32,000 nt of DNA from Candidatus Saccharimonadota bacterium (GTDB lineage: Bacteria; Patescibacteriota; Gracilibacteria; BD1-5; UBA6164), in the NCBI GenBank assembly GCA_963677765.1, contig OY782392.1, forward strand, positions 630,001 through 662,000, read 5' to 3'. The position numbers and the translations under genes are program-made. Below, one piece after another: positions 3 to 31,331 of the stretch. The first letter of the stretch is position 1, and every line of letters starts with the position of its first letter. The notes under the pieces were generated by a model, which did no database searches, was not told the DNA's origin, and saw only the letters and a list, made by a program, of their open reading frames with translations.

Positions 3-800
3 ATAGAATGAATAACTACAGCATCATGACAAACTGATATTTTTAATATATCAAGAGAAAATATTAAAATAGATTTTGATGATAATAAAGCAGAAAATAA
101 TTCATACAATATACTAGTAGATGACTTCAAAAATAATTGAACCTGAACAGTTATGCTGTGAAATCTAGAAACAATAAATTGAAAACAAGAATTAGATATA
201 AACTGGATAGAAGTATTAAACAATAGCAATACTGCAGTAATATATTCAAAAGATTTAGACAATGATGGAATACAAGAAACAATAGAAAATCTTAAAGCAA
301 TACTAGATTATAGTATAGAACCAGAACCAGAAATCTTATCATGAAATATAAGCTGAAAAATATGACTATATCTACCACAAGAAATATGCAAAAAGATATG
401 AAATAAAAATTGTAGTCAAATAGTAAAACAACTAGAAAAAGAAATACTAAACAAAACTACAAAACTAATATTAGAAAAACAAGAAGAGTTAGAAGATGAA
501 ATAGAATGAAATAATAAAAACAAAAATAAAGATAAAAAACAAAATAAAAAATTAAAAGATAAAAACAAAGAAGAAAAACAATATATAGAACTAGATAATA
601 AATGAAACTATAAAATAGTAGATTTAGAACCATGAATTTATAAACTAAGTTTAGAATTAAAGAAGTGATGGATTACAAAAACTCCACAAACTTGATACTA
701 TATTCTAGAAATAACTAATTGAGAAAATTATATAGATAAAGATTTTCAGGTTATAAATAAACTTCTAGAACAATTAATTAAGAATTTAAAAATTAAATAA
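3..800 (+). CDS. hypothetical protein, C-terminal part (5' end lies outside the window); K/N/E-rich low-complexity stretch around 480-600
   Basis: The frame starting at position 3 has no TAA/TAG until TAA 798-800 once about 16 in-frame TGA are read as Gly. No family recognised. Confidence 0.6.
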
Positions 801-819
801 TATATAATAATAAAAAATT

Positions 820-1269
820 ATGAAAGAAAAAATTAAAAATATAGTTAAGAATAGATATTTTAAAATAATAGTTTTTGTATTATTATGATTATTTATACTT
901 AGAGAATCATATGCGGTTTATATAGATATGTATAACTTTAAACAATTAGAAAAAGCTAAACCATATTTAGAAACAATAGATAAAAATACAAAAAAATTTT
1001 ATAGTTTAAAAGAATTTAATGTAATATATAGTGCTTGAATTAAACCAATTAGAAATTGTTATGATGTTAGTAATTACAATTGAAATGAAAAATATATTTT
1101 TTGATTTAAATTAGAGTCATTAATATATATATATATATATAAAACAAAATATTATGCATATCCTAAATATGATGCTCCATATAGAAATTGGTGTGAAGTA
1201 TGATTAGGTTGTTATGATAAAAATAAAGAAATATTTGAAAGAGTTATATCAAATCCATGTGAAAATTAA
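820..1269 (+). CDS. small exported/membrane-anchored Cys-containing protein, paralog 1 of 3 (149 aa), intact
   Basis: ATG 820 to TAA 1267-1269. N-terminal basic stretch plus hydrophobic segment (KIIVFVLLGLFIL). Four Cys (NCY, WCEV, GCY, NPC). The in-frame (TA)n tract encodes IYIYIY. Five TGA read as Gly. Confidence 0.75.
1123..1141. repeat. (AT/TA) dinucleotide tract, about 9 units, inside paralog 1, in frame
   Basis: Read directly: taa-tatatatatatatatata-aaac. Confidence 0.95.
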
Positions 1270-1278
1270 ATAAAAATT

Positions 1279-1765
1279 ATGAAAGAAAAAATGAAAAATA
1301 TAGTTAAGAATAGATATTTCAGAATAATAATTAAATTTTTTATATGATTTTTATTATTATTAATATTGAGTTTTATATTAGTTGCTATATATAGTTTTAC
1401 ATTTGAAAAAGATAAGATAGCAATAGATAGATATAATTTTGAACAGTTAGAAAAATCTAAACCTATACTAGAATCAATACCAGAAACTGATAAAAATTTT
1501 TATAGTTTAAAAGAGTTTAATCAAAAATATAGTGCTGATATACAACCAATTAAAAATTGTTATTATATAAGAAATTATAATTGAGATGAAAAGTATATAT
1601 TTTGATTTAAACTAGAGTCATTAATATATATATATATATAGAACAAATTTATTTGCATATCCTAAATATGATTTACCTTTTGTTCCAATGTATTATTCAG
1701 GTTGACCTTGAGATAGAAATAAATCTAAATTTAAGTATACAATTTCAAATCCATGTATAGATTAA
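1279..1765 (+). pseudogene. paralog 2 of the same family, frameshifted at its (TA)n tract (phase-OFF copy, pseudogene or assembly slip)
   Basis: The ATG 1279 frame hits TAG 1639-1641 right after the TA tract. The conserved C-terminal part (FAYPKYDLP...ISNPCID, TAA 1763-1765) continues in the +1 frame. Adding one TA unit restores a full-length reading frame. Confidence 0.75.
1624..1640. repeat. (AT/TA) dinucleotide tract, about 8.5 units, inside paralog 2; its length puts the downstream part out of frame
   Basis: Read directly: tta-atatatatatatatata-gaac. The tract-plus-linker is 2 nt shorter than in paralogs 1 and 3. Confidence 0.95.
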
Positions 1766-1780
1766 TAATAAATAAATTAG

Positions 1781-1993
1781 AACAAAATAGATATATATCC
1801 AAATCAAACAATAATTGAATTAATTTGAGAATGAAACCCTACAGTACAAACAAGTAATTGAACAAGAAGTAAAGACTGAACAGTTAGGTATGGAAGAAAT
1901 ATAAAAGCTACTATACCTCCAATATGAGAAACAAGAATAATAGAATTTAAAATAAATTGAGAATCATGATTTTTTACTATTATAAGGGAATAG
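1781..1993 (+). CDS. orphan open frame of about 70 codons with no ATG/GTG/TTG start (possible gene remnant or non-canonical start)
   Basis: No TAA/TAG between TAG 1778-1780 and TAG 1991-1993. This is unlikely by chance in such AT-rich DNA. Seven TGA read as Gly. The translation looks protein-like (DIYPNQTIIELIGEGNPTVQTSNGTRSKDGTVRYGRNIKATIPPIGETRIIEFKINGESGFFTIIRE). Confidence 0.3.
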
Positions 1994-2018
1994 ATTATAT
2001 ATAATTAAGATTTAAAAA

Positions 2019-2459
2019 ATGAAAAATATAGTTAATAATAAATATTTTAAGATAATGATTTTTGTATTATTATGATTATTTATACTTAGAGAATCATATG
2101 CGGTTTATATAGATATGTATAACTTTAAACAATTAGAAAAAGCTAAACTATATTTAGAAACAATAGATAAAAATACAAAAGATTTTTTTAACTTAAAACA
2201 ATTTAATGAAAGATATAATGCTTGAATTAAGCCTATTAAAAATTGTTATGATGTTAGTAATTATAATTGAAAATATCCATATGTATTTTGATTTAAATTA
2301 GAGTCATTAATATATATATATATATATATAAAAAGTTATTTTGTATATCCTGGTTATGATGCTCCTATACAAATCTTTTGTGGCTGAGGATCAGAATGTA
2401 CAGAGGATGTAAATAGAAAAATATTTGAAAGAGTTATATCAAATCCATGTGAAGAATAA
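2019..2459 (+). CDS. small exported Cys-containing protein, paralog 3 of 3 (146 aa), intact
   Basis: ATG 2019 to TAA 2457-2459. Positions 2059-2148 are identical to 872-961 of paralog 1. The in-frame TA tract encodes IYIYIYI. C-terminal ERVISNPCEE matches paralog 1. Confidence 0.75.
2310..2330. repeat. (AT/TA) dinucleotide tract, about 10.5 units, inside paralog 3, in frame
   Basis: Read directly: tta-atatatatatatatatatata-aaaag. Confidence 0.95.
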
Positions 2460-2470
2460 CACAAATAAAA

Positions 2471-2505
2471 AGTTAGACAATTTATAAATTGTCTAACTTT
2501 TTTTC
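2471..2505. terminator. bidirectional rho-independent terminator between convergent genes
   Basis: Perfect hairpin agttagacaattt / aaattgtctaact, with an A-run on the left and a T-run on the right. Confidence 0.7.
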
Positions 2506-8930: not shown

Positions 8931-9716
8931 ATGAAAAAACTATTTCTAATAATTGGTTTGTTTTTCATGTTAGCTTGATATACTTTTGCATCATGAGATG
9001 TTGATACTGTGGTTAACATGTGAGATAGATTGAAATTTTTCCTTATTTTAGTTCCAGCTGCATTATGAGATAGTATAAATCCATGTGCTTTTGCTGTAAT
9101 GTTTATATTGCTTTCTTCAATTTTAAAAACTCAACAATCAAGAAAAAAAGTTTTATTAGCTGGTTTTCTTTTTATTCTAGCAGTTTTTATTAGTTATATG
9201 GCAATGTGAATTGGTCTTTATAGTGCTTTATCTACAACTAATAGTGTATTTTATTTAAAGCTTGTTGTATGAATACTTTGAGTATTAATATGACTTGCAA
9301 ACTTAAAAGATTATTTTTGGTATTGAAAATATTTTAAAATGGAAGTTCCAGATGCATGGAGACCAAAAATGAGATCTATTTTAAAAAAAGTGGTTAGTCC
9401 TTTTTGAGCATTTATAGTAGGTTTTCTTATATCATTATTTTTATTACCTTGTACATCAGGTCCTTATTTAATGATATTATGATACTTAGCTTCAGAATCT
9501 TCGGCATTAAATTTATGGGGATATATATATATTACTATATATAATCTTATATTTATTATACCAATGGTTGTTATTTCAATATTAGTTGCTTTTTGATTTA
9601 GAAATATTTCTGAATTAAAAGAATATAAGGCATTAAATGTTGAAAGAATGCATTTAATAACATGAGTAATTATGTTGTTAATTTGAATTTATATTTTATT
9701 TGATATTTTGATTTAA
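8931..9716 (+). CDS. ccdA: CcdA/DsbD-family transmembrane thiol-disulfide electron transporter
   Basis: Polytopic membrane protein with the two family Cys motifs, SINPCAFAV and LLPCTSGPY. 261 aa. The start is 2 nt after the thioredoxin-like gene's stop. Confidence 0.8.
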
Positions 9717-20829: not shown

Positions 20830-21999
20830 ATGAAAAAAAACTATAAGGCTTTTACTTTAGTTGAAATAATGTTATGAATATTAGTTGTTTCAGCAGTTAT
20901 GTTAGCTTGATTTCAAGCTTATGTTAGTATAGGTATTTGAAAGGTTAATCTAATAGAAAAATCTAATATTCAAAAAGATAGTTTTTACTTTACAGAAAAG
21001 TTATTCCAATTAATAAAACAATGAGGTACAATAGATTATGAAGAATATTTTAATAGAAAAGTAGTTTGAACAAATTCATCAAGTTGAAATTATATTTCAG
21101 CAACTTGATTTTGAAATTTCTGAAAATGATGAGATTTAGTGTGAAATTATTGAGCTTGATTTTATTTTTGTAGAAGTTTATCAAGTACTACATTTGTATC
21201 TTCAGATTGATGTTATGATAACCCAGTTGTATCTTCAGATCTAAGCTCTGATATTAATTGAAACAACTTTTCTGCATCAATTTGAGATATGCAAAGATAT
21301 GGGCAATATAGTTTTCAATTTATTGATTATAATTCTAATATGAATAATGATTTATGAGATGAAAATATAGATGCTAATATTATATGAGATGATGATGATG
21401 AAGTTATATGATTATGACCAATAGTTTTTAATTCATGAGATGATGTAAAAGAGTTATATCTTATCAGCTGAGACTGAACAAAAAGAACTCTTATTAGATG
21501 GAATATAACTAGAGATGTTGATGCTCCATCTTCTTCTACTTGTGATGCTACATTGACTACAGATTTTTCAAGTACTGACTTAGAATGATGTAGATGAACT
21601 GTTGAATTTTTAAAGTTAGAGTGAGTAGATTGGTGAATGGATCATCTTAATTGAACTAGTGATACTGATAATAGTGAATATGATTGAGTTATAGATACTT
21701 GGTTGTATGATAGACAATTTACATGATGAACTGATGTTATTGCTACTACATGAGATTGATATTGGAAAGAATTATTCCCAGATACTATTAATGTAACAGA
21801 TTTTAGAGTTTATGTTTATCCAAATGTTGATCCTGAAAATTCTTGGAAAGATGATTCAGCCTCATCAAAAATTTCACCTTATGTAACAATAAATTTTAAA
21901 ATTAAACCATCTTGGTCAGTTAGAGCTAGATTAAGAAATGAAGGGAAAGAAGTAAATTTAACAACAACAATTAATTTAACAGAGATATATAGTAATTAA
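20830..21999 (+). CDS. large type IV pilin/pseudopilin-like protein with a prepilin-type N-terminal cleavage/methylation motif
   Basis: MKKNYKAFTLVEIMLGILVVSAVML carries the class III signal (K-A|FTLVE with Glu5). 389 aa, Gly/Asp/Ser-rich, with several Cys. Most Gly codons are TGA. Confidence 0.75.
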
Positions 22000-22004
22000 T
22001 ATTT

Positions 22005-22913
22005 ATGAAAAATAATAAAAATGCTTTTAGCTTGGCAATTGCTATGTGACTAGTCTTGATTACTAGTCTTTTAGCTTTCACTATTTTGGAATATATGATT
22101 CCTTTTAGTAAAAATATTAGTTGAATAGAAAACTCTACAATGGCTTATTATAAGTCAAATAATTGAGTTGAATTAGGTTTATATTTTTTGAATTCTAGAT
22201 CTGATAATGAATTAAAAAATTCAAGTTCAAGAAATTATATAGCAGGTTATTATTATGATTATGAATTTGATACTCAAGTATCTTGAAATTCTATACCTAT
22301 ATCTTGAATGTGAAATAGTTTTTATAATAATGATTATAATAAAATATTATCATGAAATCCTATTCAATTAACAGTAGGTTATAATTATTTATGATGATGA
22401 AACTTTAATATATCTTTTATTGTCCCAGATTTAGATAAAAATTGATTATTAGATGAAGAGTTAGATACTTCTTTATGAAATGATTTATGAATAGTTAACT
22501 GGCAATTAACTAGTGATAGTTCTACATTAAATTCTCATTCTGGTTCTTTGTTTACAGTTTGAGAAATTAATAGTATGACAGATGATATAAGTCCTTTGGT
22601 TGTTAATATGTTTACTAGACAATGAAGATTACTAGACGGTACACCAACTAATTTTTGATCTTTTTATAATAGTAATTGTACTTGAACAAGTGATGAGTGT
22701 ATACTTAAATTTTCAATAATTAATACTTTAAAAACTTCAGATAGTTGAGTTCCTTATTTAGAGTGGAGGGCTACTACTTGAACTGATCAACTTCCTTTAC
22801 GTTATTCTATAATTGAATCAGAATGAAAATCTTATGGTTTTGTTAAATGATTGAATGTAAGAGTTCCTCAAGAAACTGTTTCAGAAGCTTTTGACTTTAC
22901 TGTTATACAATAA
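22005..22913 (+). CDS. minor-pilin-like protein (N-terminal hydrophobic pilin-type helix lacking Glu5)
   Basis: MKNNKNAFSLAIAMGLVLITSLLAFTILEY has no Glu at the fifth position after the putative cleavage site, a trait also reported for some minor pilins such as GspK. 302 aa. Adjacent to the pilin-like gene. Confidence 0.6.
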
Positions 22914-28902: not shown

Positions 28903-29382
28903 GTGTATAATATTATCACCTTGGACCATAGTACAGCAGGTATTCCTGAAGATGGCTTTGGTGTCGATGATAATGGTAATTTTTTTGTTGCCATATCAAA
29001 AATGGGCTTTATCAAAAATAAGGATTCTTTAATTTTTTTATTTGTAAATGACAAAATTGTTGTTACATATGCTAAAATTAAAAAATCAAGAACATATAAA
29101 GCTGATAAATTTCGTTCTATAAAAAAACAAGCTCAGGATTCATATGATATTATGGTTATCGATAGGATTATTGAATATCATTTGATGTTTCTGGGTAGGT
29201 CTAAAAGAAGAAAAAATATTGATGTTTACCTTTCGCGTGTACATGTGAATAGGGTAATTTCAAATATTCTTTCCCGTGTTTATAAGCATGTGGGGGCTTA
29301 TTATGACAAAAATAGTGTAAATTTAAAAAGACATAAGTATCAGGATTTTTATCTGAGGGTAAAAGATGCTGGATTTATGTGA
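28903..29382 (+). CDS. compositionally atypical hypothetical protein (159 aa): GTG start, no internal TGA, terminates on TGA (a stop only in the standard code)
   Basis: Intact in the standard-code track. SD-led. Uses CGT, GGC, GGG, CTG, GAC and ACC codons that are rare in neighbouring genes. The TGA at 29380-29382 lies 6 nt before a strong terminator hairpin. No family recognised. Confidence 0.6.
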   Translation: MYNIITLDHSTAGIPEDGFGVDDNGNFFVAISKMGFIKNKDSLIFLFVNDKIVVTYAKIKKSRTYKADKFRSIKKQAQDSYDIMVIDRIIEYHLMFLGRSKRRKNIDVYLSRVHVNRVISNILSRVYKHVGAYYDKNSVNLKRHKYQDFYLRVKDAGFM

Positions 29383-29388
29383 AAAATA

Positions 29389-29420
29389 AAAGACAAAAAG
29401 TTTTTAAACTTTTTGTCTTT
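29389..29420. terminator. bidirectional terminator shared by the atypical ORF and dnaK
   Basis: aaagacaaaaagt / actttttgtcttt 13-bp hairpin with T-runs on both strands. Confidence 0.8.
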
Positions 29421-29429
29421 TTTATTTAA

Positions 29430-31331
<1,902 letters not shown>

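Follow-up and report, generated by a model that had tools for sequence, protein, structure and literature searches.

Among genes of pathogens that repeats switch on and off, nearly all mark surface molecules under fluctuating selection, and the CT repeats of oipA in Helicobacter pylori are one switch in which a dinucleotide repeat lies within the gene. Polymorphic toxin loci with orphan modules (CdiA-CT/CdiI, Rhs) and the silent cassettes of pilE/pilS are comparison systems of another kind. In the Mycoplasmas, mmyCImod, a Type III mod gene found in Mycoplasma mycoides subsp. capri, undergoes phase variation through an intragenic (AG)n tract (PMC3498834), and Vmm, a variable surface protein in Mycoplasma mycoides subsp. 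mycoides SC, is switched by dinucleotide indels in its promoter spacer (PMC2628566, PMC10502178). A hypervariable PTD-repeat surface protein has been described from a Gracilibacterium (Sieber et al. 2019, PMC6851277), and this unrelated in-frame repeat was all that a literature search for phase variation by simple sequence repeats in Gracilibacteria and the wider candidate phyla radiation (CPR) returned. Here we analyze a 32-kb stretch of DNA (positions 630,001 to 662,000 of contig OY782392.1, referred to below as the window, to which all coordinates apply) from an uncultivated Gracilibacterium, near the start of which three tandem paralogs of a small-protein family each carry a pure TA tract in the coding region, with the middle copy out of frame by one TA unit.

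The reading that we consider probable is that slipped-strand gain and loss of TA units switches the members of this family, which are coupled to a large secreted protein, on and off. According to this proposal, the pure (TA)8-12 at codons ~101-107, which encodes a short (Ile-Tyr)n helix, would act as a slipped-strand hot spot, where whole TA units gained or lost in replication would shift the reading frame, such that the protein in the OFF state would be cut before its C-terminal half, with the variable loop and the invariant last Cys. Since the spacing from the LES codons to the Y-P codons is fixed at 39 nucleotides (nt), each gene would have a single ON length, with n-1, n+1 and n-2 units all being OFF, and a later slip could bring the frame back. 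In the window, the first and third copies would then be ON and the second OFF by minus one unit. With the paralogs side by side, the outcome could be a combinatorial on/off repertoire of proteins whose genes are tied to that of a large secreted protein bearing adhesin-like domains at its C-terminus. The mechanism as such is already known; it is the gene family and the lineage that are new for it.

Three paralogs and the purity of their TA tracts

When open reading frames (ORFs) are called with the standard code, every gene in the window is split at TGA. Reading TGA as Gly gives the correct RecR 'LPGIGEKSA' and RsmH 'GMGGHA' motifs and reading it as Trp fails; judged by these motifs the genome uses code 25 (TGA = Gly), which agrees with the code-25 lineage assumed in an earlier note made from the letters of this DNA. 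The three adjacent paralogs with in-frame TA runs described in that note are present in the code-25 translation, and are called c1, c2 and c3 below (Table 1); P0001 and P0056 are the c1 and c3 proteins as read in code 4. All three tracts lie at the homologous codon position, codons ~101-107 of the reading frames. Of the tract lengths noted earlier, those of c2 and c3 were returned unchanged by a regex scan, and that of c1, given as about 18 nt, was corrected to 19 nt.

The N-terminal part of c2 (1279-1641) comprises 120 codons and ends at a TAG (1639-1641) right after the tract, with the C-terminal 41 codons (YPKYDLPF...ISNPCID) intact in the +1 frame as far as the TAA at 1763-1765, just as had been noted. 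The end of the [TC]TAGAGTCATTA motif, which the copies share, is 36 nt from TATCCT in both c1 and c3 but 34 nt in c2, which is therefore short of exactly one TA. The single TA insertion predicted to restore c2 does so, giving a protein of 162 amino acids (aa) that is 93% identical to P0019, with a gene length of 489 nt in both. No interrupted gene other than c2 was evident in the code-25 map of the window.

Chance gives a poor account of the tracts, as a first-order Markov model of the window predicts, per 32 kb, 0.065 tracts of at least 12 nt and 0.00 of at least 17 nt, where three were observed. In ~400 kb of Gracilibacteria DNA, every TA tract of at least 13 nt (21/21) was at the family site. 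A different explanation is that an (Ile-Tyr)3 helix, encoded in a genome of 22% GC (G+C is ~22% across the window), simply forces such a tract, that the tract is a non-adaptive mutational hot spot, and that the frameshifts are ordinary, recurrent losses of function, i.e. young pseudogenes in a redundant family. ATA supplies 59% of the Ile codons and TAT 91% of the Tyr codons, such that a pure tract is expected with p = 0.155 given IYIYIY, and this preference speaks for a by-product of coding, as do the structured helix that the segment forms in an AF2 model and the invariant length of the segment. Moreover, the loci have 3-5 copies each and one loss may be tolerated. However, pure TA underlies 19/21 of the family's (IY)n peptides of at least 5 aa, against the 15.5% expected, whereas IYIY peptides outside the family are pure in 2/12 and interrupted in 10/12. 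The corresponding p-values are 6e-14 against codon usage, with the copies taken as independent, and 4e-5 for family against non-family peptides, both ignoring the kinship of the copies. A synonymous interruption of a family IYIYIY run was seen once (L023), and slippage itself may keep the tracts uniform.

In relatives lacking the tract, Tyr is retained at positions 3 and 7 counted from the end of LES (Y-x-x-x-Y, e.g. KYIKKY), a pattern that favors the by-product explanation. The tract is therefore the derived state of one clade. Within that clade the tract has been kept among paralog lineages whose flanking DNA is ~73% identical (median). A fourth paralog, P0109, lies on the same 1,048,296-bp contig of the same genome outside the window; it has LFNIYLYKK at the tract position without a long TA run, and is presumably not switchable.

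Tract length across relatives and near-clonal assemblies

For comparison, we used genome contigs (36 loci) and metagenome contigs (23 loci), which were scanned in code 25 with separate hidden Markov models for the parts before and after the tract and gave 98 distinct copies. Between the last of the LES codons and the Y-P codons lie 39 nt in every ON copy measured (tract of at least 12 nt). The frameshifted copies had 37 nt (c2 of the window, L001, L010b and L038), 35 nt (two copies in L024) or 41 nt (L017), all of which deviate from 39 nt by whole TA units. L004 is OFF in another way, through an in-frame TAA where the tract meets a poly-A run. The two copies in L024 (4216 and 5891), from one genome (STC_119, contig of 971 kb), match perfectly along at least 360 nt, and both are OFF by the same two TA units; either an OFF allele was recently duplicated or spread by conversion, or the assembly contains a duplication.

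The fixed spacing is found with different tract lengths, since the L003 ortholog of c3 has 19 nt of TA followed by AAAAAAG, and c3 has 21 nt of TA followed by AAAAG, both at 39 nt. The poly-A run 3' of the tract is also variable (L004 1818; window 2328-2336; L003 4276), and the boundary between tract and poly-A run was moved either by A-to-T substitutions or by paired slips in both runs.

The comparison of tract lengths and frames in related assemblies, which the earlier note had proposed as a check, revealed whole-TA-unit differences between ON and OFF states at two related loci. In the first set, the 4,514-nt alignment of L001 (ENA ERZ27247094) and L002 (JGI 3300001881) has 0 mismatches, and its single gap, of 2 nt, falls in the TA tract; L001 is OFF and L002 ON, the ON allele being carried by L042 as well. 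Both L001 and L002 are syntenic with the window, sharing the family gene, the 62-aa gene, RecR, RsmH, SufC and SufB. The second set concerns a second gene in one sample series, in which the tract is 19 nt (ON) in 11 assemblies and 21 nt (OFF) in two. The tract unit is the sole difference between L062 (OFF) and L064 (ON) in 4,111 nt, and L063 (OFF) has the same +1 allele as L062 on a background that differs by 5 single-nucleotide polymorphisms (SNPs). The pattern is what replication slippage in the tract would produce, and such slippage may be reversible and frequent.

Frameshifts are confined to the long tracts. OFF copies, whether by frameshift or premature stop, make up 6/20 of those with a tract of at least 14 nt vs 2/68 of those with a shorter one (Fisher p = 0.0015), and database proteins are cut or frameshifted at the tract in 9/34 cases with (IY)n vs ~3/105 others (p = 1.6e-4), values that overstate independence, as the compared copies are phylogenetically related. 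When TA units are added or removed, every frameshifted copy becomes full-length and ends in the conserved Cys motif, mostly ISNPC, with no second lesion in any of them. The orthologs of c2 in L003, L074, L075 and L076 are all in frame, with a 19-nt tract and the 489-nt gene that the repair predicts, and the codon differences between c2 and these orthologs amount to 4/40 after the tract and 19/115 before it. It follows that c2 went OFF recently and that its frameshift is not conserved. The absence of second lesions, and the fact that c2 diverges no faster after the tract than before it, argue against the explanation by recurrent loss of function in a redundant family, which we regard as unlikely.

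The intact downstream frame of c2 could also be accounted for if ribosomes slipped by two bases on (UA)n, such that an out-of-frame copy still gave the full-length protein; formally, after a shift by 2 nt the codons on (UA)n would pair as before. However, the frameshift of c2 would then be expected to persist, and the four orthologs are in frame. In addition, the OFF alleles of other genes would need shifts of other sign and size, and no stimulatory structure was seen, although no dedicated search was made for one. Programmed recoding thus appears very improbable.

Several points weigh against an evolved switch. Because the tract specifies a structural helix in preferred codons, it could be a by-product of coding. 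It lies two-thirds into the gene, where the OFF frame of c2 still encodes a 120-aa product, and none of the 80 ON copies had a tract longer or shorter by an in-frame step (plus or minus 3 units). The kinship of the compared copies, mentioned above, belongs here too. On the technical side, the ENA and JGI assemblies may come from the same reads, some OFF assemblies have low coverage (2.5 for L017), (TA)10 stutters in libraries based on the polymerase chain reaction (PCR), and the 17-nt length of c2, known from the assembly alone, could be a consensus or polishing error. Taken to its end, this line of argument holds that the c2 tract and some of the other OFF alleles are PCR stutter or polishing errors and that the true gene is in frame. 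Dinucleotide AT repeats are known stutter sites, and the coverage given in the names of related contigs is in places very low (0.6-3.6 for L067, L073 and L076, besides L017). Nevertheless, the low-coverage contigs listed, except L017, are ON; the OFF alleles include +1 and -2 units besides -1; L062 and L063 share the +1 allele on backgrounds 5 SNPs apart, with 11 sister assemblies agreeing on the ON length; the OFF rate of 26-30% is above the expected consensus error; and no gene of the window other than c2 appears interrupted. An artefact is in our judgment quite unlikely.

The earlier note had read the tracts as slipped-strand contingency loci, and the TA-unit differences between near-clonal assemblies, the excess of OFF copies among long tracts, the lesion-free OFF copies and the in-frame orthologs of c2 all support that reading. 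The switch may moreover be of adaptive value. Tentatively, and as a possibility that goes well beyond the switching itself, one could envision a contingency system maintained by selection, where hypermutable TA tracts toggle each small membrane-anchored protein independently, partnered with interchangeable C-terminal modules of the large secreted protein, and where the conserved flank and the tract perhaps serve as a crossover point for shuffling N- and C-terminal halves, the result being combinatorial surface variation toward hosts or prey.

Table 1. Coordinates of the features discussed, as positions in the window
Feature	Position	Strand	Description
C-terminus of large secreted protein	3-800	+	265 aa; code-25 open frame running off the window start
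Copy 1 (c1)	820-1269	+	In frame (ON), 149 aa in code-25 translation; LES-to-YP 39 nt
Identical block	872-961	+	90 nt, exact match to 2059-2148; within the mosaic c1/c3 pattern
c1 TA tract	1123-1141	+	19 nt, encodes I-Y-I-Y-I-Y; regex scan
Copy 2 (c2)	1279-1765	+	Out of frame (OFF); LES-to-YP 37 nt, not 39
c2 TA tract	1624-1640	+	17 nt; one unit below all four orthologs (19 nt)
Orphan fragment in c2-c3 spacer	1781-1990	+	~70 codons, open in code 25, without ATG/GTG/TTG start
Copy 3 (c3)	2019-2459	+	In frame (ON), 146 aa in code-25 translation
Identical block	2059-2148	+	90 nt, same as 872-961
c3 TA tract	2310-2330	+	21 nt, encodes I-Y-I-Y-I-Y-I
Hairpin	2467-2502		16-bp perfect stem bordered by an A run and, opposite, a T run; located between c3 and the convergent 62-aa gene

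The small proteins and their large secreted partner

Two database searches yielded 54 and 149 relatives of the small proteins, none of which has a name, and the relative records that name an organism are all from Candidatus Gracilibacteria or from a misfiled CPR genome. Searches of the three proteins against Pfam and NCBIfam gave no significant match, and a profile search of PDB sequences with the family gave no match either. By these searches the family appears to be a Gracilibacteria-specific orphan of ~150-aa proteins. An AF2 model of P0004, a code-25 homolog of the window proteins, is confident (pLDDT 92.8) and consists of a long N-terminal helix, the first part of which is hydrophobic, followed by a compact alpha/beta domain, with the (L/I-Y)n segment forming a short helix at residues 96-102. 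A Foldseek search with this model found no match in PDB (none at E < 7) or in BFVD, and the model therefore yields no functional lead. Two cysteines are invariant, C80 and C147 in c1 numbering, and the most variable and indel-rich stretch is a hypervariable C-terminal loop between YPxYD and the last helix. The N-terminal hydrophobic helix and the conserved cysteines suggest that the proteins are probably extracytoplasmic and membrane-anchored; they may be located at the cell surface, and their genes are linked to that of a large protein with a signal peptide. Type IV pilins were considered and rejected, as the N-termini (MKEKIKNIVKN...) are without the G-F-T-L-x-E motif, there is no N_methyl match in Pfam, and Foldseek found nothing in PDB.

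The window opens with the C-terminus of the large protein, which, like the fragment in the c2-c3 spacer, is absent from the earlier note. In most related loci, tblastn places homologs of this product immediately upstream of the family copies, either as full genes (731-1225 aa) or as orphan 3' fragments. A signal peptide and an N-terminus that is LamG-like or rich in repeats are followed in these homologs by a conserved central 'GNC[YF]G...GH' region and a prealbumin-like C-terminal domain of the SpaA/SdrD_B type. The match to SdrD_B is weak for the window product, and a relative has a SpaA prealbumin-like match above the Pfam cut-off (E = 1.8e-5); Pfam also gives a weak CarboxypepD_reg match at the C-terminus and Laminin_G_3 at one N-terminus. 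A toxin/immunity pair was rejected as a candidate, the C-terminus of the large protein being adhesin-stalk-like (SpaA, SdrD_B), with no toxin family found in Pfam.

The organization of the partner genes resembles that of loci with orphan modules, i.e. tandem 3' fragments each followed by a small gene. Such arrays are seen in L003 (1-5917) and L007 (722-5836), where a family gene comes after every fragment; the fragments are 54-213 aa long and begin within a conserved region, either 'MIAGGDYY' or 'MLGNLETINGK'. The window itself has one such fragment before c3, in the c2-c3 spacer, with 64-72% aa identity (tblastn) to the very C-terminal end of the large L013 protein (1225 aa). Stretches like it occur between family copies in L010, L013 and L039/L062-L073, and by its similarity the spacer fragment appears to be the orphan remnant of another type of large secreted partner gene.

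The 90-nt block reported earlier as common to c1 and c3 is an exact match that cannot be extended, and at the overall c1/c3 identity of 81.5% such a run has a chance probability of ~8e-7. The two copies are mosaic: their first third is near-identical, as are their last 45 nt, whereas the variable loop has diverged, a pattern that lends support to the gene conversion then suggested and fits recombination between cassettes. In other genomes, P0052 shares its N-terminal half with P0038 and its middle part with P0020. The relationship of these three proteins suggests that paralogs have recombined there too, possibly around the conserved flank of the tract.

Genomic setting and comparison with known systems

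A gap of 9 nt separates c1 from c2, and the two genes are probably co-transcribed. The hairpin downstream of c3 is the one site of its type found, vs 0.1 expected in shuffles, and overlaps the end of the 62-aa frame (2482-2670, - strand); from its sequence it is terminator-like, could terminate in both directions and would close the cluster. Elsewhere in the window there is a single TA run of at least 12 nt outside the family (9521-9532, + strand), encoding GYIYIT and ended by an ATT codon, unlike the pure tracts of the family. Its host gene (8931-9716) encodes a multi-pass membrane protein with paired Cys motifs that by eye is CcdA/DsbD-like. Two adjoining genes at 20830-22913 (+ strand) have prepilin-like leaders (MKKNYKAFTLVEIMLG..., MKNNKNAFSLAIAMG...) and are probably type IV pilin or pseudopilin genes; in L062-L073 an N_methyl protein of 269 aa adjoins the family gene. 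A 505-codon open frame at 29002-30519 (+ strand) is antisense to a DnaK-like gene (29430-31331, - strand) and is most likely a spurious shadow ORF of an AT-rich recoded genome.

CPR bacteria are thought to be attached to other cells or to prey on them, their contact molecules are largely unknown, and almost none of them have been cultivated. If the proposed switch holds true, the small family and its large secreted partner would be concrete candidates for host-interaction genes, contingency loci would not be limited to animal pathogens, and the frequencies of TA-unit alleles would provide a marker to be followed in existing metagenomic time series without cultivation. Should the combinatorial surface variation hold as well, it would be the first such system described in the CPR. 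For annotation, the findings come with a warning, in that public databases call genes of this family as truncated or split proteins.

The switch most like the one proposed here is that of mmyCImod, in which, too, a dinucleotide tract lies within the coding region, one length being in frame and another running into a stop right after the tract. Similarly, relatives are frameshifted at the same tract, and the genome is small and AT-rich with TGA reassigned. Unlike in mmyCImod, the repeat in the Gracilibacterium consists of TA units, and the conserved structural (IY)n helix that it encodes comes two-thirds of the way along a small orphan protein, with one ON length throughout the family, in an uncultivated code-25 organism known from sequence alone. 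The repeat of Vmm is also said to be TA, reportedly from work by Persson et al. in 2002. Vmm, a lineage-specific surface protein of 16 kDa, shares with the family the dinucleotide-repeat switch, the small size of the protein and the reduced, AT-rich genome. However, Vmm switches at the level of transcription through promoter spacing, whereas the family tract lies in the reading frame and acts by frameshift, and the two have no sequence relationship. A promoter-spacer switch of the Vmm type was accordingly rejected for the family, given tracts in the coding region at codons ~101-107 and promoter-like matches that are no commoner than in shuffles.

Compared with CdiA-CT/CdiI, Rhs and pilE/pilS, the family loci have in common the tandem 3' fragments of a large secreted-protein gene without the 5' part, each followed by an intact small gene, and the mosaic identity between copies that suggests recombination. 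They differ from the toxin modules and from pilE in that the C-terminal domains of the large protein match the SpaA and SdrD_B prealbumin-like folds of adhesin stalks, and in that a hydrophobic helix at the N-terminus and conserved cysteines characterize the small protein, with no toxin, immunity or pilin signature found. The PTD-repeat protein, finally, comes from the same phylum and is likewise the product of a repeat-bearing gene for a predicted extracellular protein that varies in a near-clonal population. That locus, however, holds an in-frame 9-nt array with synonymous variation and no on/off frameshift, and its protein is unrelated to the family whose TA tracts are described here.

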